Shown here: piece after piece, positions 1-16,944 of the stretch
Numbering within the stretch: the first letter of the stretch is position 1
Layout of the letters: every line of letters starts with the position of its first letter
Source: Peribolospora baueri
Lineage: Eukaryota
Direction of reading: 5' to 3'
Assembly: GCA_029717555.1 (NCBI GenBank)
Contig: JAMDHS010000107.1
Coordinates: 45,332-65,331 of the forward strand
Length of the DNA stretch: 20,000 nucleotides
Translations under genes and position numbers: made by a program
The notes under the pieces: generated by a model
What the model saw: the letters and a program-made list of their open reading frames with translations, nothing else
Told to the model about the DNA's origin: nothing
The model's database searches: none

Positions 1-3000
1 GCGCGAGCCGGACGCATCCACGCTGAGGGGCGTGTCGGGGGCGGCAGGTCTGGACGGCTCTTGCTTGTGAGCTCTCACGGCGCCGGCCTTCTTCTTGATC
101 GAAGGTAGCTTGAAGATGTCAGGTTTGGACTTGGACATGGGCTGTCGCTTGCTGTCCAGCTCGTCCACGACCAAGCCGCCCTCCTGCTTGACGGCGACCA
201 CCTCGGACTCAGATCTTCGCCTTGTGCGCGCGCGTTTTTCGGCACCGGAGAGGAAGCGCCGGACAAAGTCGGCGACGACACGGTTGTGGAGGTCTCGCTG
301 GACGACGTCTGTAAGCTCCTTCATCAACAAGTCCGTCGCTTCTGCTTCCACCTCCTCCGACGTCCAGCTCGTCTTCTTCTCTGGTGCGGACGCCAGAGCC
401 GCCAGAGAGATTGCTTTGGCCACGTCTGCGCCGATATCGAGACGGCCTGACGACAGCGCCTGTGAGGACTGGGTCGCGGCGGCCTGCGAGGGGCCGGCGG
501 GCTTCGGGATAACCAACTTGACGTCCAGCGACTGGCCAAAAAGCTTCGTCTTTACCATGTCTGCACGGCACTCGAGCGCCGTCGAAACGTCGCCAAAGGG
601 GATGTACCAGCCCGCGCCGTTGCAGTTTTGCTCGATTGCGTGGATGGCGATCGGTTCGAACCGGCGGATGTTCAGATCCAGGGCCCGGTTGAAGAGAGCT
701 TGGTCGATACGCATGAACGGTCCCATGGCGATGTAGACGTAGGGCAGGTTCAGTTGGCGCAGGTGCTCCATGACCTCTTTGGCCTCGGCATGACTTGGTA
801 GTGACGAGCCCGTCGCCGTCGCGGGCGGCTGTCCCGACTTGGGCGCCCGTCCGCGAGCGCCGCGCCTCGTGAACACCTCCGTGCTACGATTCAGACCGAC
901 ATGATCAACCTCATCATCGGAATCAATGTCCATGTCGTCTTCGCCGCGAGACCTTCCAGCCGGGGTGGCCACGGGCGACGAGGAGATTGGCGAAGGGGCG
1001 ACATACGCCGAAGCTCCATACGGCATAGAGGACGAGACGTGGGGCGCGCGGAAGCCGACCTGTCGAGGCAAGGTCGATGAGCCAGGCCGACCTGGATAAA
1101 CCTGGGAACGGTGATGCAAGGCGCGCATTGGATCATTGGGCGTTGACTCGGGTGTGCTGGAATGCGGATGTGGATCGGGCTTGGGCTTGGGATGCAGCCT
1201 CGCCATCTCCATTTCCACTGCCTTTTTGCATTTGACGCCCTCACCATCAAGCTCAACCTTGACGGGCTCCGTGCCTGTGCCAATCTTGGTGCCATTGATC
1301 TTTTTCAGCGCCGCTTTGGCTACCTGATGCGCGTCTTGTCGTGGTCCTGCTGCTGAAGAAGACAGAGAAGTGGTCTTGCCTCTCGAGCCGGTTGAAGAAG
1401 GCACATCGTGGACAAACTTGACCCAGGCGATGCCGAGACTTCCTCCAGTGAGAGGGTCGTATTTGAGCTCGGACTCTTCGATGCGGCCTAGGGCCTTGAG
1501 AGGGCGAAGGACGTGGTCGAGGAGCGTGAGGGTCGAGAGGCGGGTGATGAGAATGGCTCGTGCCGGTGGAGGGAAGGGAGAGTTGGCGTCCCACTGCAAA
1601 ATCGAACGAGGAACGACAGGGCAAGCGGCGCGTAAGCAAAACTTCCTTGCCGAACTTCCTTGCCGAGTTCACCGGACGGTGACGACGACGGACTCACTTT
1701 GTAATCAAACTTTTCCAGCATCGGCCTCCACTTTTTCCTTCCCCTCGACAACGTCTTCCCATAGTTCGGCGTGACCTTCCTCGGGTCTGGAACTACAGCC
1801 CTCTGCTGCCCTTCCTCTGGGTCCTTACCCCACACGATCACCCGCTTCTTGCCCTCGTTTCCCGGCGAAAGCGCCGGCTCGAGCGTGACACGGAAATTGT
1901 GTTTCTGCGACAACTCTGTCGGAAGAGGAACGGGAGGCGGAAGCGATGAGGGTGCAGTAGTGCTGGCGGGTCCGGTGGCCATATCCTGGGAGTCAGGAGG
2001 CGGAGGAGGCGGAGGAGGCGGGGCCTCATCCGGAGGTGGTGGTGGCGGTGGAAGAGGTTCCGACGGAGGCGGAGGAGGTGGGGCCTCGTCCGGGGGAGGA
2101 GGCGGAAGGGGCTCCGATGGTGGGGGAGGATGCTTGTCGGAGGACCGCTTTGGAGCCTGTTCGTCGTCGGACCGCCTAGCATGATCGAGATCCTTCAGCA
2201 AGGCCCTTGGAGCCATCGGCACACGCCCTCTGATGATCGGTGACCTTGCTGGGCGTGGAGGCGGCGACGGAGGCTCCCTTGGCCTGCTGGTGCTGGAGGC
2301 GGAAGGCGACCTGCGGCTGACATCTGCAAAACGCTTGGACGAAGACGCCTGTGGCGGCGGACTCGTCCTCGCGTCCGCTTTTGTTGCTCGCGAGCGCGAT
2401 CGCGGTCGATACCCGTCCGGCGTCCCATCCCTGTACGATGATTCCCTACCTCTTCCTCGCTCTGCGTCCTTGGCCGGCGTCCCATCCCTGTACAGCTCCC
2501 TTGCTCGTCCTCTGTCTGCACCCTCCCTTCCTCGCCTCCGTTCATCTCTATATCTCCTATCATCGTCGACGTCTCTTCTCCGGGAGTAGCTGCTTCGGTC
2601 CAGGTCGTCGTCCCTATCCCGATCCCACTCCCAGCTCCGGTCCCGATCCCACCTATCTCTACCGTCCCTCCGTCTTGGAGGAGGAGACGGCGACCTTCTC
2701 CAATCGTCGTAATTCTCGATGGCCCAGTGCGGTAGTCGGCTCCTTGAAGACCGGCTGTCGCGGTGAGGCGAAGGAGAACGTGCGCGGCTCGGCGGCAGCG
2801 GGATGGGCGGGCGGTGCGGGAGCAGGTCCGGTCTCGATCTGGTCCGCTCCCGTCCTGGAGAGCGCAACTTGGGAAGGGGAGAGGCACGGGAGCTCGATGG
2901 AGTTGGATCGGTGGAGACAATGGACAAGGGCCGGTGTGGGCGAGACTCGGGCGGCGACGCGCCAAGAGGTTTAGCGGGCAGGGAAGGTGGCGGGGGAGGC

Positions 3001-3047
3001 AGACTGCTGCCTTGAGCGCCCGGCTTAGGCGTCAATGCTGGTGCCAT
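1..3047 (-). CDS. SET1: Set1-family histone H3K4 methyltransferase (COMPASS catalytic subunit), N-terminal part. Exon 1 3047-1698, intron 1697-1594, exon 2 from 1593 to beyond base 1. The SET domain lies outside the window.
   Basis: ATG at 3047 opens a Pro/Arg/Asp-rich N-terminus ending ...VPDPRKVTPNYGK...LEKFDYK. A GTGAGT...TTTGCAG intron joins it in phase 0 to WDANSPFPPPARAILITRLSTLT...IEESELKYDPLTGGSLGIAWVKF...KINGTKIG...VKVELDGEG (Set1 RRM-like). Further on: LPYVYIAMG...GAGWYIPFGD (SET_assoc-like) and LLMKELTDVVQRDLHNRVVADFVRRFL...KLPSIKKK. The frame is open to base 1. Family recognised from recalled motifs. Confidence 0.88.
1640..1665. repeat. 13-bp perfect tandem duplication (AACTTCCTTGCCG)x2 inside the SET1 intron
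   Basis: Read directly at 1640-1652 and 1653-1665. Confidence 0.9.
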
Positions 3048-4841
3048 TGAGCCGAAGGAGGGCGACGGCGCGGAAGGCTGGGAGGGATGAAGAGAGGCGA
3101 GGAGGAGAAAGTGGAGATGCCGGGGCGCTCAGAGGAGGGAGAGGGCGCAGGAAAATGAAAAGCGGAGCATGAGGTGGTAATGAGACACGAAGGGGGCGAT
3201 GGTCGCTGGCGGGGCACGGAGGGTGGGGCAAGAAAGGAGCGGGGTGGATGTGATGGAAAGGAGAGGAGATGGAGACGGTGGTGGTGGTGGCTCTGGGTGG
3301 AGTCGGTGGTGGTGAGGTGGAAGGACGAGCGCGTAGATGGCGCAGACGAGAGAGACGCGCAAAGGGGGAACGAAGGAAAGCAAAGGGCTTTCTTTCGGCG
3401 CCCACGATCGACGACGGCCTCGTCTTAAGTCTCTTTTCTCCACCACCACTCCGTTCGGCGACGACGATGGCGATGACCACGAGCGAGACGCTGACTGGCG
3501 TTCTTTCTTGCCCCCATTCACCGTCGTCGCCTCCTTCTCGCCCTCCGCGTTCCATCCAAAGTTTCGCTTCGGATGAAAGAAGAACACGCAACGCAAACGC
3601 CGGTCCAGCGCAGCTCAAACGCACTCGAGACTCCCTCGCCGGCTCACAGCCGTGGCCCAAGATAGATCGCCACCCACTGGAGCCCTACTGAGCTGATGGA
3701 TTCGCCCATGTACAAACTCACCCGGGCCGCCTCACTACACCTGGGTGAACGACCATCCGGTACCAGGTCCTCCGCATGCTTGATGGCCATTTGGATGTCA
3801 AAGGCGTGCCATACGCTTCTAACCGGCTCAGAGCACCCTTGGACATTCGCACAGGGGACCACCTCATCCCAAAACAGAGCACAAACTATGAAAAGACGGA
3901 CCGAACCGCGTCGTCCTTACAGGTTGCTCTACGTTTCGCCTGGAGCTTAGAAATGTGTGAGGTGGAGCTTTGGACTAGCAGCAGTGCCTTTAAAGCTTGT
4001 CTCCGTCTCTCGACCGATATACACCAACCTCCTTGTGAGCGGCCAGTCTTCATGGAGCTTTAGACGGACGTGATGGACGATGAGAACGTCGTAGGATACG
4101 ATGTCCGTCGCCCGACAGGGCAAGCACCAAAGAGGCTGCGGCAGACTGGCCCGCCGCAGTCGATGTGGCAGACCGGACAGGCGCACAAGAAAAGGTCCAT
4201 CTCCTCTCCTCTGCTCTTCTTGTCATTGCCGAAACGACGCTCGTCGACCTCGTTCGATCAACGGCCGTAAACGATGGTAAATTCGAAACGGCTCTCGGCC
4301 TTCGATCCCGGCGCCACGTCTGCAAGCCGTGCGAGCGGGTCGCCCGTCGAGCGGACCATGTTCTGTCCGCGATACGCTAACGAGTCCGGGGAGATTCTAT
4401 TTCATCTCACGCCAGCCACCTTATTAGACACCGGCAGTCGTGTTCGTGTTACACGCTCTATCTAGCTCGCAGCTCCGATGGAGGCGATAGCCGGAAAGCA
4501 GCCTATACGTCTTTGGCAGGCATCGGCACGACACTGGCTCATGCTCGCCCGTTCGGTAGCGGACGTGCTTGCGGAGGGCATGCCTTTGTCGCCCTGTGCG
4601 ATCACCTGCGTTCTGTGATATTTACCTCCACCACCTCCTTCCTCCCTCCCAGTACCTACACCCTACCTGGAACGCTCTCCGGCGTTCCTTCACGAGGTGA
4701 TCATCTCTCTCTTCCCTGCTTCAGACCTGCTTGCTTTCATCGGGCGGCCTAAATGGCCGCTCGTCCCCGCTGAACGGCCCACTTCCTTGCCTCCCACCTC
4801 GCCTTTGATTCCCATCTCGCTTTCTTCGACGGCCACGCAAG

Positions 4842-7800
4842 ATGGCACCACCGCCTGCTGCTGATCGACCAGTGGCATCGTGGTCGCTCATAGGAGGCGG
4901 ACCCTCTCCAGCTCGCCGCTTCTCGTCTGTCGAGTCCGGCCGCCCAGAGGAGTTGGCCGACAAGACACACGACCACCCGGAATCTCCGATCCCTCCTCTC
5001 GTCATCCCCATTCTTGCCATATTCTTCGTATTGGTCGCCCTAACCGCGGGTTGCTGGATTTGTAGCAAATGGCGCCGCCGTCGCAAGAAAAACAAGGCGC
5101 GCAAGGTCAAAAAACAAAAGGACATCGCTTCTGCTTCCTCACCCGTTCAAGAGATGGAGGAGCTAGACGTGGGAGAGTGCGCCAAAATGATGGACAGTCA
5201 CCGCGATATGATGGACAGTCACCGCGATGCGGATGTCGCCAGCAGAGCACCGTCTTCTCCCACCCCTGGCAGCGTTGAGACCACATCGACGCTCATCGAT
5301 GCCCGCCCTTCCACGGCTCGCCCGACCACCGCCGGGATATCGAGTCTGACGTCCTCGTCTTCTTATCGACCCCGCGCACACGCTCTCGCGCCTTCTTGGG
5401 TCATCCATCACGCTCGTGTACGGTTCCAACGACTGGGAATGCGCGGCTTTGGACACCTGCACGAGGAAGGTGTTGAGGGTGCGCCTTTAAAAGACGTGTT
5501 GACTGAGGAGAGGTGGAGAGAGTGGCACGGCAGCGGCTTACTCAGTATGTCACCTGGGTTAGCAGACGGAGACAACGATGGATTTGGTATTGGCTATCCC
5601 GGCAACGACCTGGGTTCGCACAAGGTCGCGGGCGGAGAGGCGGGCGACCTGGCCCGCGCCCGCGCCCACACTGGTCGCCAACACGCGCGCGAGGAGGAGT
5701 CGGAGAACGTAGCTGACGTTCGTCACACCTTTGAGGGCAAGCGCGAGGTCGGAAAGTGGGAACGACACCGCGGTTTCGGAGGCGACGCCGCTTGCAAGTA
5801 CGGCTCAGCTCATCACCACATGCACGCCGACGGCTTCCAGGGCTTGCAACGCGGCATGAGCAGGATGTGGGGCAGCTTTTCGACCAAGATGCTGAACGTG
5901 TTCAAGGACTCGCAGCTGGACGAGGAGGAAGATCTGGAGAGTGGCACCCTCGCAGCATCCGAACCGCCTTCTCGTCCGACATCGCCTTTGCCTTGGCGCC
6001 ACGCTAAGTCTGGAGAAGAAGGGCACAAACAAGAGTACCGTGAACTTTCCCGTACGCGTGTCGACCATCGCGTTTCGGACGCGACAACGCTCTTCAGCGA
6101 CCTCCTCACGCCCAAAGACAAGATGTTCGTGCAGGAAGACAAGCTCGAGGCCGAGACGAAGCCGGAGCCGTGGTCCGACGAAGTACGCGCCTCCCTCTCT
6201 AAGCCTCCGCGCCGCTCGTCGGGCGCATACATTCACTCCTCCAAAGCACCCTCGGGACGTCTGGCTCAGTCCGACTCCAATACCGCGAAGCGAGTCTCTC
6301 AAAGCCCAATCTCGGCTCGAGACGCCATGGCCAAGTTGCATCCGACGCAAGTTTCCCGTTCTCCTTCTCGTCCCCGTCCTCATCTTTCCGCGAAGCCACC
6401 CAGGAGCAGCTCTGACGAAGAGCTCAAGCGAAGTTTTGAAATGTATTCGCTGCAGCAGACCCCGTCCGCTCGAGCTGCTCCTTGGGGCCATCAGCATCCA
6501 CAATCGCGACATCCGAGCGGCGGGCGCAGTATAGACTTTGAAACCATGGTCAAAAAGACGCAAACGGCGCTCGATGAGCTTGTCTCGATACTCCAGCCTG
6601 ACCATCGACGTCGGCGTGGGGCTCGGAGCCCTAGCGACGAGGGTGGCTCTAGCACTTCGATAACCGACTCGAGCGCCGACGACGAGTATCCGTCGGACGA
6701 CCATGCCGGATGGTCTCTTCTTCACTCTCGCTCTACTTCGACAATTCTTCACGTAGTTGACATGCGCCCGCTCGAAGCGGTCACGCATGCGGCGGCTGCG
6801 GAAGCGTCGTCCAAAGCGGGAGACGAAGGCTCGATGAGCTTCTTCGACGTTGACCTCTCCAGCGGGAACGATTGCCAGGAGCACTTGTCCGACGCCAGCT
6901 TTGGTCGCGTCAGCACGCAGTCGTCCGAGTGGATCGATGTTCCGATCGACGTCCGACGACGACGCGAGAGCGGAGCCGTGCCACCTTCGTCAGGGACGTC
7001 GTCTAGCGGTATCTCCCGGCTCGTCCGACGCAGCGCCATCGCCGACCATCGTCGCTCCTCGCGCCAAGAGAGCAGGTATTTCCGCCTTTCCGACGGCAGC
7101 GTTGAGGACTCTTCGAGCGCTTTCACCAACGGTATCACTCGAGCGCGCCCCGTGGAAGTGCTGGAGGATATCGCTACCGCACCGGGGAACGCCAGCGATG
7201 TCACGTCGCCTGGTCGCGCTTGCGAGGGTTCCAAAGGGGTGACCGTGATGATCGAGAACGATGGAGACGGAGTCGCACATGACGAGGCATCGAGTGTGGG
7301 CTCGTATCCCCGCGTTCAAGAGTCTCGGCGCCGCGAGGGATCGTTCTCCGCTGTGATGCAAAAAAGTTCAGGGGTGCGGTCGAGAACAGAGGGAGAAGAG
7401 CTCACTCAAGGAGACGTCGACGATCTTGAGGCCGGCGGGTCCGAGGATGGTCGCCTGCCCTCCTCCGTCGTCGACGTGCTGCTTGCCGTCTCCGTGGGCA
7501 ATGCTCCGACCGAAACGGGAAAGACGTCGGTTGGAGGACACATGCGTCAGGCGGAGGAGAAAGGGACCGGTGCGGGAATGGACGCTACGATAATACCCTC
7601 TCTCGACGTCGGTTCCATCCCCGAAGCGCCCAACGCGTACTCCAACTGTACAGAGAAGTCGAACGATGGGGAGGAGACCCCGGTCTTCGTCCCCTCTCCA
7701 GAGCTCCAGCGGGCTGCTCTTCGGGAAGAGGTTTCGCCTTCGACGGATTCAGCTTCGCCCCCGCCCTTACCGCCGAAGGAATTCGCCAAATCGCATGACC

Positions 7801-8666
7801 TCGCGGCCACAGCGGTCGAGGGTGCAGCACCGGCTTCTCTTCCGTCTGTGCAAGGCTCCTCACACGAGGTGAACAACCGGGGAAGGGTGGTGAGCGCAGG
7901 GAAGATGCATAAGAGCGTCAAGATGATGATAGCCGATTTTGAGGCTGGGGCCAAAGCGGCCGCCTCCCCTCGTTCCTCTTCGCCTCCGCTACAAATCTCG
8001 CCGACCTTTTCGCCTCGAAACCACCCCCTCGCTCTTGGACCTGTCATCCGCGCTGTCCACTCACCCGCCGATATACGCTCTTCATCGGCCTTGCCACTCT
8101 CACCGCAGAACCACCCGCACCTCTTTTTCGCGAACGCGGTGCCGCTGACCGGGCTCGTGCGTGTCGACGCCAATGGTAGCGGAGGAAAGCCGACGCCGGT
8201 CCGCCTCGAGGGCTTCGCCCAGGCTGTAGCGCCCACAGCGGGGATTACCTCGATGCTCGCGGGCGCTGAAGCGGGTAGGCCTTCTGGCCGTGAATCCGGT
8301 GCGCCTTCCACCGACTTCAGGAGTACCACTTTGGGTACGCCACCCCTCGGCCCAAGCACAGAGGTCCTGGGAAGGTCTACGTCCTGTTCGAGCGGTGGGG
8401 TCATCTCCAGCACGCACCGTACCTCCATTGTCTCCACCGATCCTCTCGAGCCTCGTCAGAGTCGCGCCAGCGGTGTGGAGGAGGACGGAAAACAGCCGTC
8501 AGCGCCTCCCGCGTCAGGACACAAAGTTGCCAGTGGCGACTCCGCCGATATACCACTGGCCCGGAACGCGTCCGAAGACGCTTTCGGTGATGTGGTCGTC
8601 AGCTTCGGCAGCCTCGCGAGCGACGGCGCGCTAGCCGCCTTCCTCTCTCCAAACCGGATGCTCTGA
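4842..8666 (+). CDS. Hypothetical 1274-aa single-pass membrane protein with a long Ser/Pro/Arg-rich, probably disordered C-terminal region
   Basis: Uninterrupted 3825-nt ORF. One hydrophobic segment (LVIPILAIFFVLVALTAGCWIC) near residues 53-74 is followed by a strongly basic stretch (KWRRRRKKNKARKVKKQK). No N-terminal signal peptide and no globular domain I recognise. Confidence 0.8.
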   Translation: MAPPPAADRPVASWSLIGGGPSPARRFSSVESGRPEELADKTHDHPESPIPPLVIPILAIFFVLVALTAGCWICSKWRRRRKKNKARKVKKQKDIASASSPVQEMEELDVGECAKMMDSHRDMMDSHRDADVASRAPSSPTPGSVETTSTLIDARPSTARPTTAGISSLTSSSSYRPRAHALAPSWVIHHARVRFQRLGMRGFGHLHEEGVEGAPLKDVLTEERWREWHGSGLLSMSPGLADGDNDGFGIGYPGNDLGSHKVAGGEAGDLARARAHTGRQHAREEESENVADVRHTFEGKREVGKWERHRGFGGDAACKYGSAHHHMHADGFQGLQRGMSRMWGSFSTKMLNVFKDSQLDEEEDLESGTLAASEPPSRPTSPLPWRHAKSGEEGHKQEYRELSRTRVDHRVSDATTLFSDLLTPKDKMFVQEDKLEAETKPEPWSDEVRASLSKPPRRSSGAYIHSSKAPSGRLAQSDSNTAKRVSQSPISARDAMAKLHPTQVSRSPSRPRPHLSAKPPRSSSDEELKRSFEMYSLQQTPSARAAPWGHQHPQSRHPSGGRSIDFETMVKKTQTALDELVSILQPDHRRRRGARSPSDEGGSSTSITDSSADDEYPSDDHAGWSLLHSRSTSTILHVVDMRPLEAVTHAAAAEASSKAGDEGSMSFFDVDLSSGNDCQEHLSDASFGRVSTQSSEWIDVPIDVRRRRESGAVPPSSGTSSSGISRLVRRSAIADHRRSSRQESRYFRLSDGSVEDSSSAFTNGITRARPVEVLEDIATAPGNASDVTSPGRACEGSKGVTVMIENDGDGVAHDEASSVGSYPRVQESRRREGSFSAVMQKSSGVRSRTEGEELTQGDVDDLEAGGSEDGRLPSSVVDVLLAVSVGNAPTETGKTSVGGHMRQAEEKGTGAGMDATIIPSLDVGSIPEAPNAYSNCTEKSNDGEETPVFVPSPELQRAALREEVSPSTDSASPPPLPPKEFAKSHDLAATAVEGAAPASLPSVQGSSHEVNNRGRVVSAGKMHKSVKMMIADFEAGAKAAASPRSSSPPLQISPTFSPRNHPLALGPVIRAVHSPADIRSSSALPLSPQNHPHLFFANAVPLTGLVRVDANGSGGKPTPVRLEGFAQAVAPTAGITSMLAGAEAGRPSGRESGAPSTDFRSTTLGTPPLGPSTEVLGRSTSCSSGGVISSTHRTSIVSTDPLEPRQSRASGVEEDGKQPSAPPASGHKVASGDSADIPLARNASEDAFGDVVVSFGSLASDGALAAFLSPNRML
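5187..5228 (+). repeat. 21-bp perfect in-frame tandem duplication encoding MMDSHRD twice
   Basis: ATGATGGACAGTCACCGCGAT at 5187-5207 and 5208-5228. Confidence 0.95.
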
Positions 8667-9847
8667 ACGCGACCGAGTGCTCGTCTCGCTCGTATTTCGT
8701 CCCCCCCCCCCTTTAATTCACCGACCAGTTACGCCCAATATCCAATCATTCATTCAATCACGTTCCTCTCTGTAGCTTGTTACTTCTCTTCTCATTTCAT
8801 CTGTGGTCCTTTTCGTTCTCGTCCTTCCTTCCTTCCGCCCGTCCGTCCGTTCGGGAAGCAAGACGTCCGTGTCGTCCTTCGCTCTCCTGTCTTTCGTTGT
8901 TGACTGAACCGATCGATTCAAGTCTTGTTGGTGCGACTGTAATATCATCTCGTTCATCTGTAGTCCGAATTGAAAGCTCACACCAGTTTGGGGCCTCCTC
9001 GTCTCACCTCATGTCTCAGAAGGCCCATTGAGGAGTGATCGTTCGTCACGAGCCAACTCGCCTCGCTCCATTCCGCGCCACACGCTATTACCACTTTACT
9101 CGCCTTAAACGAGACCGAGGTGGAAGAAGGAAGGACGCGTCCACCTGCGGACGAAGACCTGTCCGCGGTTCTCAAATCAAACTTTCCTCAACGGCCGTCT
9201 CATCCCGATAGCAGCCGCGCAGGCGGCCGTGTTGGTATCTATGGATATTCCGTGAGGGGCGAAAAAGAAGGAACAAGGAAGCAGAGAAAAGGCCCCGCGC
9301 AGCACAATCCTCGGTTCGCCTTTTTCCGCATACGTCCGAGACGGCTTCAGGCCCGAGAAGGCGAAAGCAAGTAACCAAGAGACTATGAGAGCGCAACAGT
9401 GACACCACTGGGGAAAGGAACGAAGGTCGAGAGACTGAATCCACAAGAACGGCCGGATTAAAGAGCATCCGGAAGTGAACAAAACCGAAGAGAAGAAGAG
9501 AGACCGGGGGAATCCAGGAACCAGCCCCAACCGATCCGAAACTACCGTCCACGTACAGAAAAAAGAGCATATCGGTGAGGTAAACGAAGAGACATCGCGT
9601 CTCTCCGAGGGGACGGCGTCCAGCTCGGCCTCACAAAGTGAACAAGACGAGGCATCGAGCGGCCGAGTGAGGTAGCCACCGAAGGCCTGGGAATAGCTAG
9701 GTGTGTGGAAAAGCAGAGAGCAACACAAACGGCACCGCGTTGTCCGAAGACGCCAGTCCGCCCGTCGTTTTTGCTTGCGGTGGCTCTAGACCCACTCGCA
9801 ATCGTCGGCCGCCCGCCATCCAGCCCTGGTAGCAGATTTGGGTGGTA

Positions 9848-9931
9848 TCAGATCCTGGTCCAGCCCACGCACACGTAGAACACGGGGAGGATGGCGCTTG
9901 CGAGGACGCCGATGCCAAGGTAGACGAGGAC
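9848..9931 (-). CDS. Putative alternative terminal exon of the Lcb3-like gene (VLVYLGIGVLASAILPVFYVCVGWTRI*)
   Basis: Preceded by a pyrimidine-rich tract and a CAG acceptor (9934-9932). Phase 0 matches an AAG|GTGATT donor at 10378. The peptide aligns with the 27 residues that follow VLTK in exon 8. Confidence 0.72.
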   Translation of the reverse strand, partial: VLVYLGIGVLASAILPVFYVCVGWTRI

Positions 9932-10294
9932 CTGATCGATGAGTGGGGGTGGCGTGGGGGTGGACGCCAACCGTAGGCGAGAGGCAGGGACAAGGGGAGA
10001 AAAGAAAGAGATCATCTCGTCAACATTGTTCACCGACGAGCAAAACAAAATGAAAAACGAAGCATCGGAAACTTCCGGAACACAAAACGACGAGGATGAA
10101 ACAAAGGAGACGACGGGAAGTCACGGGCACGTGAAACAAAGAAGGCGGGCAGCCGATCGGTAGCGAACGACGAGGCGAGCACGGTGGCAGGGAAACCTTT
10201 TACCTTTTTTTCCTCGTGAGGAAGGATTAAGGATTAATTACCAATACACGCGGAGCGCAACGAAGTAAAAAGGGGCAAACGGCGGTGGGCTAAT

Positions 10295-12848
10295 CTATGA
10301 AGTCCACTTGTCCAGAAAGACGAAGAGGATCGGAACCCATCCGGCTCCAAGGAAGCCGATGCCCGCGTACGTAATCACCTTAGTTAAAACTGGGATGGAC
10401 GGCATAGAGAGGAAGAGGGCGGCGAAGAAGTTGAGGTTTCCATCAGTTCACAGGACGACGAAGACGCCAGCTGCACCTTTTGCCCCGGTTATGGGCACCG
10501 TTCACGTGAGCGACGGCCGTTCTCACCTTCAGCATCATAGTGCTTCACATCCTTGCCGCTCGACTCGCCCTGCCTCGCCGCCACGTCGTTCAGCATGAAG
10601 CTTGGCGTCGGCGTCGGCGGCCTTCCGAGCTCCCTGGCATCCCGCTCCCTCTCCTTCTCCTTCTCCTGCACGGCGGTCATTGCCCGACCGCCGACTGTGC
10701 CATGAGCATAAGGATTCGCAGTCGCCACCGGTCCCCGCAGCTTGAGCACGCCCGGCTCAGCTGCCGGGTTCGCCCTGGATGCGATGTCGGAGGAAGCACC
10801 AAGAGGGACAGAGCGCGAGGATGCCGAGTGGTGCAGGGAGTGGTTGGAGAAGGTCGAGGGGAGGTCGATGACGGAGGGAATCGGATGGAGGAGACCATCG
10901 GGAGGAGGAGGTGGAATGGATTTATAATCTCTGAGGCGTCCCAAGGCAGGTAAAATAGCGAGAGAAACGGCCCAATATTAGTCGAAGACCGGTAAACTTC
11001 TCACGAACCGAGTCCAACGAACCGACGACGCGCGCGCGAGGCACTCACGTGGCGGGCGTGTAATGCCGCCTAGGCAAGGTGAAGCTGAAGGTCTGAGCGA
11101 CAAAGCGGAAGATGGGAGGCAGGGCCACGCGGCAAACGGCCTTGGCGAGGAGACGCCAGACAAAGATGCAGGAGATGCCTGATTCGACGGTTCAAGGCGG
11201 GGAAAATTTAGCTGCACGGTTGATTCATCGTACAAAGCCATGGGCAGACCGCAATAGCGCCGGTCCCAACCACTCACCGAGCGCCATCTTAGCGAGGGAC
11301 CGACCGGACCAACCGATCCAGGTCTCGTCCTCCATCAGCGGAGGCACCGCCCATGTCGTGCCACCAAGCCCAGAGGCAGCGGTACCGCCGCCGAGGGAAG
11401 CAGATATAGTGTTGCCGAGATGATCGGCAGCGGTGCCCACAGCGTGGAGGAAGGGGTGTCGGTCGCCGAGAAGAGCGAGTTTGACGCTCTGCCACCGCCC
11501 AAGCTGGACGCCCATCACTACGCTTACGAAGGCAATCGCATCTTCGAAGCAGGGGCAGTCGTCTACAGGTTCCGGGTGGAGGGAGACCATGAGAAGACCG
11601 CTGGGGATGATCAACGCCGGCACTGGTCGTCGAGATGAAGCGATCGGGTTAGATATTCTGTCGAGGCCTTTTTACGAGGCGCGTGCGATGACGAGCTCAC
11701 CTATCCAGCTGGTGTTGAGAGTGAAGGCCTCAATCTCTTGGAAGAAGGCCCACTGGACCCACGAAATGAAGGCGCCGAGCCCGACGCCGGCGATACAGTC
11801 TGGCGAAACGAGAAATGTCCGCACACGTCATGGACCGGGCTCGAGGAGATAGGCGTCCGTGCGCGCTCTCGCCGCGACGACACTCACCGACGATGCTGTG
11901 CATGCCACAATAAATCCTTCCCACCACGATGCTTAGGGCATACCATGCCAATCCAAGCTCAGAAAGCCAACTGCCAATGAACCACCCGTCCGCACCGGCG
12001 CGCCTAGCTGCGACGACCCAGCTGTACAAGTACAAGGCGACACTGACGGCGTTGGTGGAGTGTGTGGAGAGGAAGCCGTACTCGAGGTGGTGGGTGCCGA
12101 TGGTGAGACGGGTGACCGGAGGGGAATAGGGCCGGGGGACGCAGAGAAGGTCTTTGACGACAGAGGAGAGGTAGACGCCGGCTGCGAGGATGTTGATGAG
12201 CCTTCCAGGCAAATGGCGGGAGGCGAACGCGTTATTAACGCTCGCATCCCAATGTGCGACCGCGTGGGGCCGGAAGTGGCTCACGAAAGCAACACGGCGT
12301 CTGACATTCACTCACCCCCGAGCGAAGCGGGCGTTGCCAAGCCAGAAGCATGCTGGCAGGAAGACGAGGAAGAAGCTGTGCGTGCCCAGAAGAGAGGTTT
12401 GCACAAAGTACGAGTCTAGGGTGGGTGTGCGGGCCGTGGCCTAGAGAAGGGGGGGGGGGCATAATGTCACCACCGCGAGCAATGAGCGATCTGTCGACGT
12501 CAATGACACTGGCCATAGCCCCTCGCGCGCGTAGCTCACTTGAATATAAGCGAGAAGCTTTGTCTCTTTCCTCAAGCTCCACACGAGCGCCTTGCGTATG
12601 CCGGCCCTCCAAGCTGGCAAGACGCGATCATATGCTTCTTCAGGCGAGAGTCCGATATCCGTCGGAGCGCCTACCTCCTCTGCGAAGCTGACGGGAGAGG
12701 AAGAGCGGCTGATGGAGGCGGCGACGGGGGGAGCGCCTGAGAACGGCTCTTTGGTGTAGGCATAAGGGTTGAAAACGGGGCGAGAAGAGAAGGAGGAGGG
12801 GGAGGAGGGGCGCGACGAGGGCGGGGAGGTCGTGAAAGTGGCTGGCAT
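10295..12848 (-). CDS. LCB3: Dihydrosphingosine/sphingoid-base 1-phosphate phosphatase (PAP2 family, Lcb3/Ysr3-like), about 606 aa. Exons 12848-12540, 12440-12316, 12201-11888, 11799-11701, 11622-11278, 11178-11049, 10930-10527, 10389-10295.
   Basis: Spliced translation gives RTPTLDSYFVQTSLLGTHSFFLVFLP, PAP2 motif C1 KDLLCVPRP, C2 EYGFLSTH and C3 GRIYCGMHSIVD, plus the family motifs HPEPVDDCPCFEDAIAF and KHYDAEVLTKVITYAGIG. All seven introns are GT-AG with consistent phases; exon lengths sum to 1821 nt. Confidence 0.92.
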
Positions 12849-13673: not shown

Positions 13674-16625
13674 ATGGCCGAGCCAGTCCCCACGCGCTCC
13701 CCCGGCAGCCGCCCTGGCAGCCGCAGAGGCAGCTTGACCCTCTCCTCGTACAGACGCGGCTCTGGCACCGAGAAGATGGCCTCCGGACATGTGTGTATCC
13801 GATGCTTCTATTTTGCTTGTCTCCTTGGCCGCCGTCGTGGCTCGGAAGACGCCAGCGCCGCGTTCCATCGTGGCCCGAACTGATTGCTAAGCTCGTCGGC
13901 TTGGCGGGCGCGGCGTCCACATCCGCTGACAACGGGTATCGTCCCCTCTTTTCTTTTTTTTTTTCGCAACCCCTTCACTTTGCTCACCTCCTGCTCTTTG
14001 CGTCTGGTCGTCATGTCCGACACCGCCGCCCCACCTCGCCGCCCCATGGTGGTCCGTTGCCCCTACTTCGCCGACCCCCCACCAACACGCTCCTTGTCCT
14101 GCCCTGCTGCGCCCACCTATACTGCTGATGATGCACCCTCGCCCACGGCGTCCGGCGCCTCTCTGGGATTGGCGCTCACGCCATCCTCCATCGCCGACCC
14201 TGACGATCGACCTTTCTGCTTGCCCTCGCGCAATGGCGACAATGGCGTCGACCGCTCTACATCCACTCACACAACTCCGCCTTCCTCTCCGCCACCCTCT
14301 CCGCCACCTCTACCATTCTTGCCCACCGGGGAAACTCCGGGATCACCTGTGTTCTACCCATCTCCGTCTACACCCGTGCCTCCACGATTTCACTCCCTAC
14401 CGCCCTCTCGCTCCTTCACGCCCGTTCGACGACGCCGCCTCGTACGCAAGGTGTACACCTGGCACACGCGGACCCACGAGAACGAAGAGCTTCCGCACGC
14501 GACGAAGAAGGACCTCTTCGAACATCTCAAGGAATATGAGAAGCTCTTCACCGTCACGCCACAGAGGCTGAGGATGATCGTCGACGCGTTCGTCGACACG
14601 CTCGAGACGGGACTAAAGAAGCATGGACAGACTGTCGTGAGTGGTTCATCATGGGATGATTGACGTGGAGGGGACAGCGGTCGCAAAAACGCGGCCGCAG
14701 CGCCCGCATCGCCGCCGCCCTCTCATCTCATGCGTTGTCTGCCCTCCCATTCATCTAGCCAATGATCCCTACGTGGGTCTTCGGATGGCCTTCCGGTAAA
14801 GAGGAGGGCTCTTACCTCGCTATCGACCTCGGTGAGCCCGCATGACCGGTTTCCAATGGAAAAACACGCCGTGTTCGTCGGTGGCCTGACTATATGCCTC
14901 TTCTTGTCTCACCAGGCGGCACCAATCTCCGTGTCTGCCATGTCCAGCTCAAAGGCGAAGGTAAATTCAGCATCACGCAGTCCAAATTCCGTCTCACGGA
15001 CGAGCAGAAGCAATGCAACGGGCAGGAGCTGTTCGACTTTTGCGCAGAGTGCCTTAAAACGTTCATCGAGGACAATTTTGGAAGCGAGGGGCAGGACGGT
15101 GTCATCTTCGAGGAGGAGATCGCGCTCGGGTTCACGTTCAGCTATCCTTGCGAGTGAGTTACCTTCCCGCTCGGTCCGTATGCACCGGGTCATCTCCCTC
15201 TGACCGATGGTCACCGGTTCGCCCCGCTACACAGGCAGGATCGCATCGACCACGGAAAGCTGATCCGCTGGACCAAGGGCTTCGGGAACCCGAACACGGA
15301 AGGGAGGGACTGCGCTGCCATGCTCATGACCAGCTTGGAGAAATACGTACGTGTCGAGCGAGCGGGCAGTCGCGTTTTCTCACGTGTGGGAGAGGTTCCA
15401 GCTCACATTGCCTCCTCGTCCCTCGGCCGCATGCTTCTGCACGTCCACAGCACGTGCCCATCAAGCTCACCTCCATTATCAATGATACGACGGGAACGCT
15501 CATCGCTTCCAACTATGTCAACCCGAAGACCAAGATCGCTTGCATCTTCGGCACGGGTTGTAACGCGGCGTACATGGAGCACGTGGCGGACATTCCTAAG
15601 ATTGCGGACAAGAAGATTGATCCGAAGTATGATATGGCCATCAACTGCGAGTGAGTTTTTTTGGGTCCTTGCCAATTGGCCGCCCGCGGTCTGGCTCACT
15701 GCACTCTCGACGTTCGGCAGATACGGTGCTTTCGACAGCTTCAAGCACGAGCACCTCCCCCGGACAAAGTACGACATGTCGATCGACCTCGCCTCGAATA
15801 AGCCCCACGAGCAAGCTTTCGAAAAGATGATCTCGGGTCTCTACCTCGGCGAGATCTTCCGCCTCGTCATCTGCGAGCTTGTCGACGAGGGTGTCCTCTT
15901 CCTCGGTCAGAACACGTACAAGATCGAGAAGCCCCACGCGTTCGACACCGCTTTCTTGAGTCTGATCGAGAGGTATGTGGTGTGGTTCCCCAAGCCTTGC
16001 GATTCGTCTGAGACTCGTCTGAGTTAACTCGTCCCTCGTTCCGTGTCTCAGCGACCCGACCGAAGAACTTTTGACGGTCACTGGCCTCTTCACCCACTTT
16101 TTCGTCCTCGACACCACCATCCCAGAGCGTCAGTTCCTCCGACGCCTCGCCCAGCTCATCGGCACGCGCGCCGCCCGCCTCAGCGCGTGCGGAATTGCCG
16201 CCCTGTCGTCCAAGATGGGCTACGTCGAGAGGGGAGAGGAGATCGCCGTTGGGTGTGACGGCTCCTTGATCAAGAACTATCCTCATTTCGGCGATCGGAT
16301 TCACGAGGCGCTCGTCGACATTTTCGGCGAGAAGGGCAGGTGGGTCGGCCGGGTCGAGCGGGGCCGAGCTGTTTTTCGTTGTCGTTCGGATGGACACGAG
16401 TCGGTCTGAGCGATCTGCCCGTTTCTCCCCTCACAGGCTCATTCAAATCACCCACGCCGAGGACGGCAGCGGCGTCGGCGCCGCGCTCATCGCCGCCATG
16501 ACCGAGGCGAGTGCTTCCTCCATCTCTTGTACTCGCCGCCGTGTTTCGCTAACGTCGTCACCCGCCTCCCGTCGCGTTGCTGTCTACAGGAGCGCAAGGC
16601 CGACGGCATCCACCCGGAACTCTAA
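13674..16625 (+). CDS. HXK: Hexokinase, about 523 aa. Exons 13674-13790, 14451-14636, 14759-14831, 14916-15153, 15235-15346, 15451-15650, 15721-15972, 16052-16339, 16437-16506, 16590-16625.
   Basis: Spliced translation contains PMIPTWV, LAIDLGGTNLRV (phosphate 1), LGFTFSYPCEQ...LIRWTKGF (sugar binding), IINDTTGTL, IFGTGCNAAYME, INCEYGAFD, FEKMISGLYLGE, GCDGSL and AEDGSGVGAALIAA. Exon phases are consistent and sum to 1572 nt. The exon 1 join is less certain than exons 2-10. Confidence 0.95.
13791..14450 (+). other. Unusually long hexokinase intron 1 (660 nt, GTGTGT...AAG) containing a 557-nt AG-free zone
   Basis: Phase-0 join gives MASGH|VYTWHTRTHENEELPHATKK. The last upstream AG is at 13890-13891 and the next is at 14449-14450. 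Confidence 0.7.
16507..16589 (+). other. Non-canonical GC-AG intron (last hexokinase intron, 83 nt)
   Basis: GAG|GCGAGT donor, GCTAAC branch at 16548-16553, TACAG acceptor. Splicing yields ...AAMTE|ERKADGIHPEL*. Confidence 0.85.
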
Positions 16626-16944
16626 CCTCCGTTCGTCTGTCGTCAGCATGGAGGACACGGTGCCGGCGCTCGGTCAGGTGTCGTCGTAGCCCTAGCTCCG
16701 ACAGTGCGCGTCGCCGCCGCCGTGTCTAATGATATACCAAAAATATGGCTTGAATCCCGATCGATCGTGAAGCGAACGTGAAGCCCGGCCCCTTCTGTAG
16801 TCTTTCCCCCACCCGGACTTGGAGATCACCGCCGTTCGATTCTATCTGTCGTGTTCCGCGGCCTGTCATGCTCTTCTTTCGCTCTTCGGGGCCCGTAATA
16901 ACACGCGTCTATCTGTAGAGCGGAGGTGATGACAGCAAGGGCAG

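Follow-up and report, generated by a model that had tools for sequence, protein, structure and literature searches.

We have identified two homologous candidate endings for a single enzyme gene in a 20,000-nucleotide (nt) window from Peribolospora baueri (assembly GCA_029717555.1, contig JAMDHS010000107.1, forward-strand positions 45,332 to 65,331); all coordinates below are counted from the first base of this window. The gene lies on the minus strand and is predicted to encode an LCB3/YSR3-type sphingoid-base-phosphate phosphatase. Its terminal exon encodes a last hydrophobic segment of 27 codons followed by TAG (tail A, proximal, 10378-10295), and a second hydrophobic segment of 27 codons followed by TGA lies further downstream on the same strand (tail B, distal, 9931-9848). 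At the level of sequence, it is confirmed that the resemblance between the two tails is real and that both are homologs of the last hydrophobic segment of this protein family. We propose that tail B is a lineage-specific alternative terminal exon that is under selection and is reached by splicing, a reading that we consider about evenly poised between right and wrong.

The two tails share one reading frame. Exon 8 of the gene starts at 10389 after CCCAG with an 11-nt segment, TTTTAACTAAG (10389-10379, minus strand), which completes a valine codon and encodes LTK; it then continues directly as VITYAGIGFLGAGWVPILFVFLDKWTS up to the TAG stop at 10297-10295. Tail B reads VLVYLGIGVLASAILPVFYVCVGWTRI from codons 9931-9851 and ends at the TGA stop at 9850-9848. 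As 447 nt separate the start of tail A from the start of tail B, both are in the same frame, and joining 10379 to 9931 in our exon model yields, in phase 0, a second product of 606 amino acids, in which the 11-nt segment common to both forms would stand alone as a micro-exon. The initial annotation had drawn attention to these features, and all of them lie on the minus strand at the positions it had given. Its two forms of 606 amino acids are both returned by the exon model, and its two gapless 27-residue tails with eight identities are borne out by the alignment. Tails A and B have 8 of 27 residues and 41 of 84 nucleotides in common, and their ungapped BLOSUM62 score of 37 was reached by 2 of 100,000 shuffles (P = 2e-5). 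No homology between the flanks of A and B was found by blastn and tblastx beyond a 14-nt core inside the tails, and the resemblance between the codons for VLTK before tail A and those for LIDQ before tail B (5 of 12 nt) is not significant.

That both tails belong to the family is shown by a profile hidden Markov model of the 27 residues that follow the motif ...HYDxxV[LIV][TS]K, built from 95 of 120 listed orthologs, which carry this motif. When the profile was run on the 566 six-frame open reading frames (ORFs) of the window, tail B scored 21.2 bits (expectation value, E, 6e-6; profile positions 1-24) and tail A 20.1 bits (positions 1-19), and the next best ORF reached 3.7 bits. With a profile of 27 positions the whole-sequence correction of hmmsearch hides true matches in long ORFs, which is fixed by using sliding windows of 40 amino acids; in such windows tail B scored 23.0 bits and tail A 20.8 bits. 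Overall, the profile scores ranged from 21.2 to 24.8 bits for B and from 20.1 to 22.4 bits for A. The best 19-residue Kyte-Doolittle averages (1.86 in A and 2.19 in B) are hydrophobic enough for a membrane helix, and the tail is presumably the last membrane helix of Lcb3-type enzymes. The two tails differ in helix face and in their last residues.

In its proximal-tail form the gene occupies 12848-10295 of the minus strand and has eight exons, of which exons 1-4 lie at 12848-12540, 12440-12316, 12201-11888 and 11799-11701, and exons 5-8 at 11622-11278, 11178-11049, 10930-10527 and 10389-10295. This exon model comprises 1821 nt, or 606 codons and a stop, and has GTGAG at 7 of 7 donors. The ORF of exon 3 matches the PAP2 domain (PF01569) with 44.9 bits against a Pfam gathering cut-off of 27.2. 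A protein search with this exon returned 431 proteins at E ≤ 0.001, and the best named matches were YSR3/LCB3-type proteins of Ustilaginomycotina, with identities of at most 70% among the matches listed; the names are annotations of the source databases, not assays. By these matches the DNA comes from a basidiomycete that resembles the Ustilaginomycotina. Over the aligned body of orthologs the identity is 46-53%, and tblastn with six orthologs is collinear with the gene. Translation across exons 3 and 4 shows KDLLCVPRP, STHS and GRIYCGMHSIVD, matching all three PAP2 catalytic motifs, which we take to be K..RP, S.H and R...H...D. Exons 7 and 8 read KHYDAE/VLTK (slashes mark exon boundaries here and below) followed by tail A, which corresponds to the conserved C-terminal KHYDA[DE]VLTK and hydrophobic tail of the family. 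The domain score, the named matches and the C-terminal motif support the assignment of the gene to the LCB3/YSR3-type sphingoid-base-phosphate phosphatases of the PAP2 superfamily, as had been suggested from the sequence at the outset.

The point where the two predicted forms part is a candidate internal 5′ splice site, AAG/GTGATT (intronic part 10378-10373, minus strand), which follows the lysine codon of VLTK. It matches the consensus CAG/GTRAGT at 7 of 9 positions and is the sole site with at least 7 of 9 matches among 80 exonic GTs; most constitutive donors of the gene also score 7 of 9. The conserved K-V-I codons dictate five of these seven positions. Two codon choices remain free, GTG (not GTC or GTT) and ATT (not ATC or ATA), and both fit the consensus, with a joint codon-usage probability of 0.093. 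Upstream of tail B there is a branch-point-like GTTGAC (10024-10019; the A, at 10020, lies 88 nt before the acceptor), followed by an AG-free, C/T-rich tract (10015-9932) that ends in the CAG acceptor at 9934-9932. TGAC-type motifs also stand before the acceptors of introns 1 and 3, at ~25-30 nt. Joining AAG/GTGATT to CAG/GTC is phase 0, and the donor, the pyrimidine tract and the CAG are placed exactly for an in-frame swap. Two AT-rich patches (10240-10221 and 10210-10191, minus strand) lie 55-105 nt past the stop of tail A in an otherwise GC-rich region and form the candidate proximal polyadenylation, or poly(A), region, although that they could mark a proximal 3′ end is a guess. Between 9600 and 10400 there are four 20-nt windows with an AT content of at least 0.7, namely these two patches, the micro-exon region (10390-10371) and a T-run (10060-10041).

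We envisage that the stretch of the terminal exon coding for the final transmembrane helix of a single-copy LCB3/YSR3-type gene was doubled long ago in tandem, and that both copies would have been retained as coding sequence since then. Exon 8 would be a composite terminal exon, and most transcripts would probably read through into tail A and end at the nearby poly(A) site. In a fraction of transcripts the weak donor AAG/GTGATT would be used, so that 447 nt would be taken out, and with them tail A, its stop codon and the signals for the proximal 3′ end, and the 11-nt VLTK piece would be joined to tail B at CAG/GTC, giving a 606-residue enzyme that differs only in its last helix and C-terminal tail. 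The use of this junction, the production of both forms and a competition between splicing and proximal polyadenylation are what we infer from the arrangement of the sequence. The initial annotation had likewise proposed a tandem exon duplication that yields two isoforms. Of that proposal, the homologous tails, the in-frame splice anatomy and the internal signs of constraint described below speak for the duplication and its two products, whereas the idea that the swap alters localisation or partners is pure speculation. A more ambitious picture, in which a basidiomycete yeast or a relative of the smuts would run an animal-style device of great rarity among fungi (an 11-nt micro-exon, a deliberately weak donor and poly(A) competition) as a one-gene equivalent of LCB3 and YSR3, with a helix swap changing partners, localisation or turnover, is tentative and in our judgement falls somewhat short of an even chance.

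To judge how tail B has evolved we used a metagenome scan with the PAP2 exon, which gave 77 fungal LCB3-type loci, 59 of them with a tail match of at least 9 bits. The closest relative with a tail on its contig is locus L002, which is intronless and 63% identical in the PAP2 exon. The L002 tail (2160-2240) shares 13 of 27 residues with B and 9 of 27 with A, and the other 579 residues are 48% identical. Because 13 of 27 stands against 48%, tail B has diverged from L002 no faster than the rest of the enzyme. The L002 tail looks intermediate between the two copies, with T3, G11 and W14 common to A, and L2, S12, A13, L15, V17, F18, G23 and R26 in common with B. The subset of ancestral residues that has been retained seems to differ between the copies. 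The distance between A and B (40 of 81 nucleotides) is as large as that of either copy from L002 (41 and 43 of 81). The Nei-Gojobori estimate of synonymous divergence (dS) between A and B is ~1.13, near saturation, and the ratio of nonsynonymous to synonymous divergence (dN/dS) comes to 0.38 (B) and 0.34 (A) when each tail is compared with L002, on 27 codons each. In a relative-rate comparison with the consensus of the columns of 96 tails, five sites are matched by A only, five by B only and seven by both; A has a mean identity of 9.5 to these 96 tails and a mean BLOSUM score of 42, the corresponding values for B being 10.2 and 53.

How well a tail without function would have survived can be estimated from the divergence of the two copies. 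If one copy had been neutral, it should lie at least ~0.4 substitutions per site from the ancestor, because the A-B identity of 0.49 is at least about the square of the identity between the neutral copy and the ancestor. Neutral decay was simulated from 15 consensus-like tails (mean 51.6 bits; n = 4500 per distance, d). An intact ORF with at least 24.8 bits, the score of tail B, was kept in 4.4% of cases at d = 0.3, in 0.8% at 0.4, in 0.1% at 0.5 and in none at 0.75 or more. Survival rates were lower when the simulation was started from A or B. The codon usage of tail B points the same way in being periodic, with a GC content by codon position of 0.59/0.41/0.93, while the same-frame flanks are flat (0.48/0.48/0.63 in the 46 codons upstream and 0.59/0.63/0.59 in the 27 codons past the stop). 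Of all 27-codon windows in the 20 kb, 0.42% reach a GC content at third positions (GC3) of 25/27 or more, as do 11 of the 579 in-frame windows within the gene's own coding sequence; the GC3 of tail A is 0.70. Both tails stop after exactly 27 codons.

Where the conservation of tail B begins is informative as well. Six tail columns are conserved to at least 93%, and tail B fits five of them; of the four VLTK columns upstream, where it reads LIDQ, it fits none (hypergeometric P = 0.024). Of the 40 fungal loci in which the tail match begins no later than profile position 3, 37 have TK directly before the tail. The LIDQ in B would fit a VLTK supplied by the 11-nt micro-exon, with B's own copy having turned into pyrimidine tract, and constraint on B appears to start at the acceptor. 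Taken together, the comparisons suggest that B is no more decayed than A and that both copies have been under protein-level constraint.

Several observations weigh against an alternative terminal exon. All selection tests draw on the same 27 codons, so that no single one decides the matter; dS is near saturation, the relative-rate counts are small, and at the loosest bound on divergence (d ~0.28) the P value for such retention in a neutral relic rises to ~0.05. The constraint argument fails if B belonged to a functional paralogue until recently. At the proposed donor the G at position +5 is missing, whereas it is present in 7 of 7 constitutive donors. The proposed intron of 447 nt is 3-6 times longer than the others (78-137 nt), and the sole good branch-like motif sits farther from the acceptor (88 nt) than those of the other introns (~25-55 nt). 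Much of the splice signal would also come free with homology, since AAG/GT and AG follow from the K-V codons; the AG at the acceptor of B comes with homology because the CAG sits at copy B's K codon. Finally, a second tail of at least 9 bits was found in 0 of the 59 other tail-bearing fungal loci, scanned in 40-residue windows, 45 of which (including L002, with 696 nt) have at least 600 nt of downstream flank. The same scan gave no spurious second match of at least 9 bits in ~1 Mb of fungal metagenome loci. All 95 tail-bearing ortholog proteins likewise have a single tail, contiguous with VLTK. Because one tail only is seen in the 59 loci and the 95 orthologs, the duplication would be specific to one lineage at best; the nearest sequences compared are only ~70% identical in the PAP2 core.

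The explanation that competes most directly is that tail B is a relic without function that is never joined to messenger RNA. It could be a tandem duplicate that has died, or the last exon that a once-functional neighbouring LCB3 paralogue left behind when its body was deleted. We consider this explanation unlikely, while giving it appreciable weight. A relic would account for the single tails of the 59 other loci, for the suboptimal donor with its atypical intron length and branch distance, and for the loss of B's own acceptor region and VLTK (now LIDQ), and the AG/GT features that come with homology ask nothing of it. An old paralogue truncated recently would moreover explain both the high divergence between A and B and the good preservation of B, and would escape the constraint tests. 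Against this, a neutral relic formed in situ and as old as the A-B split should not keep a 27-codon ORF, the stop position, 23-25 bits and a GC3 of 0.93, and relatives are no closer to A than to B. The version with a deleted paralogue would need a breakpoint that falls exactly at the K/V boundary and in phase. No other LCB3-derived piece was found downstream, where tblastn with six orthologs and blastn and tblastx against 8664-10294 gave insignificant matches only. Among the 120 matches listed there is, by eye, one LCB3-type protein per named species, and the other fungal loci show no sign of tandem paralogues.

It is also conceivable that B is the constitutive ending, the 447-nt intron being always removed, and that tail A is a decaying copy misread by annotation. 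B matches profile positions 1-24/25, including the G-W, where A matches 1-19, and it is nearer to L002 (13 against 9 of 27) with a stronger codon bias. We nevertheless give this explanation a slim chance, as A keeps an intact ORF, 20-22 bits and a dN/dS of 0.34 against L002, so that the neutral-decay argument covers A too. T3, G11 and W14 are common to A and the constitutive tail of L002, the proposed donor is weaker than every constitutive donor, and the patches that resemble a 3′ end come after the stop of A. Slimmer still is the chance that B is expressed by another route. Exon 7 could be joined to a GGAAG/TT acceptor (exon start 10071), giving 649 amino acids with a 46-codon linker, or B could belong to a stand-alone, single-helix ORF of 55 codons that starts at an in-frame ATG (10015-10013, minus strand). 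Both options are in frame, the acceptor at 10071 is phase-compatible with the exon-7 donor, and a GGAAG acceptor is also present at intron 2 of the gene. The linker, on the other hand, is T-rich and has no coding periodicity (0.48/0.48/0.63 over its 46 codons), the near-invariant VLTK would be replaced by unrelated residues, and nothing supports a promoter or translation of the micro-ORF. A protein search with the 90-residue ORF that contains B gave 16 word-sharing candidates, none of them at E ≤ 10. Two simpler routes are excluded: read-through of the stop codon from A into B would meet two more in-frame stops (10240-10238 and 10123-10121), and direct splicing of exon 7 to 9931 is out of frame as coding sequence, the donor being phase 1 and the acceptor phase 0.

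If tail B is an alternative terminal exon, the closest mechanistic parallel is the switch between secreted and membrane immunoglobulin mu, where a suboptimal 5′ splice site within the terminal coding exon sets read-through to a proximal poly(A) site against splicing to downstream exons. Both cases would follow the logic of splicing versus polyadenylation and end in a different C-terminus, which is a membrane anchor in immunoglobulin mu. They differ in that the downstream exons of immunoglobulin mu are not homologous to the read-through tail, whereas both endings here are homologous helices, and in that the placing of poly(A) sites here is a guess based on AT-rich patches. In animals, homologous alternative last exons that arose by tandem duplication are a familiar arrangement. 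A parallel in gene structure is offered by KRAS, for which the text of PMC9882654 describes alternative last exons, 4A and 4B, that give KRAS4A and KRAS4B different membrane-targeting C-termini, and states that exons duplicated in tandem frequently end up being used in a mutually exclusive way. As presented there, KRAS resembles the locus studied here in its tandem homologous terminal exons and in yielding two proteins that are identical apart from their membrane-associated C-terminal part. The KRAS pair, however, is vertebrate, has been proven at transcript and protein level and has persisted over hundreds of millions of years, and the whole of exon 4A is either skipped or included, whereas the candidate donor here lies inside the proximal terminal exon of an arrangement that is lineage-specific and proposed from the DNA sequence.

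Among fungi, SKI7/HBS1 offers a precedent for one gene doing the work of two. According to the text of PMC3597508, this is a single alternatively spliced gene in many fungi and a pair of paralogues in S. cerevisiae; the splicing was verified by reverse transcription polymerase chain reaction and western blot, and alternative splicing that gives two functional proteins is called rare in fungi. One spliced gene in place of a paralogue pair of S. cerevisiae would be paralleled here by one two-tailed gene in place of LCB3 and YSR3, although neither LCB3 nor YSR3 occurs in the text of that paper (0 occurrences; PMC3597508). The gene resembles Lcb3 and Ysr3 of S. cerevisiae and their basidiomycete orthologs in its PAP2 core, in KHYDA[DE]-VLTK and in a final segment of the type V.VY.GIG...P..F..GW, and it differs from these relatives in its second tail, as all 95 tail-bearing orthologs and the 59 metagenome loci have one tail. 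In the main texts of the literature searched we found no report that connects LCB3 and YSR3 with alternative splicing, and in literature titles and abstract openings no fungal case of a tandem exon duplication with mutually exclusive use.

Intron retention dominates fungal alternative splicing. To our knowledge, productive alternative splicing in which homologous protein segments are exchanged is widespread in animals and barely documented in fungi. If verified, the arrangement described here would be of a known type, namely alternative homologous terminal exons, and unusual for fungi. It would imply that fungi can diversify a membrane protein by exon duplication together with competition between splicing and polyadenylation, instead of by gene duplication, and it would offer two naturally occurring enzymes distinguished only by a single helix, with which the role of the last helix in Lcb3-type phosphatases could be probed. 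Since standard annotation would report tail A only, such isoforms would be systematically missed. On the sequence evidence as a whole, we regard two isoforms with different tails as a well-founded hypothesis.

We would add a few observations on the other fungal loci and on the neighbourhood of the gene. In 19 of the 59 tail-bearing metagenome loci (L006-L025, L040-L045, L051, L069 and others) the tail match does not begin before profile positions 4-6, and in 18 of these 19 an unrelated sequence stands upstream of it, the exception being L002, which has VLTK. This suggests that some lineages have an intron inside the tail-coding region just before GIG, unlike the K/V boundary proposed here. Downstream of the gene, a PAP2-core-like tblastn match at 9510-9376 (minus strand) was given by two orthologs with E values of 8-10 and 31-47% identity; it is insignificant and not collinear with tail B. 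Convergent to the LCB3-type gene is an uninterrupted ORF of 1285 codons on the plus strand (4809-8663), with a GC3 of 0.66 and no Pfam family at E ≤ 0.01. Upstream of the gene lies a hexokinase gene on the plus strand (13884-16686), which is made up of at least four ORF pieces, so that it has several introns, and which matches the Pfam families Hexokinase_1 and Hexokinase_2 with E values down to 4e-25.

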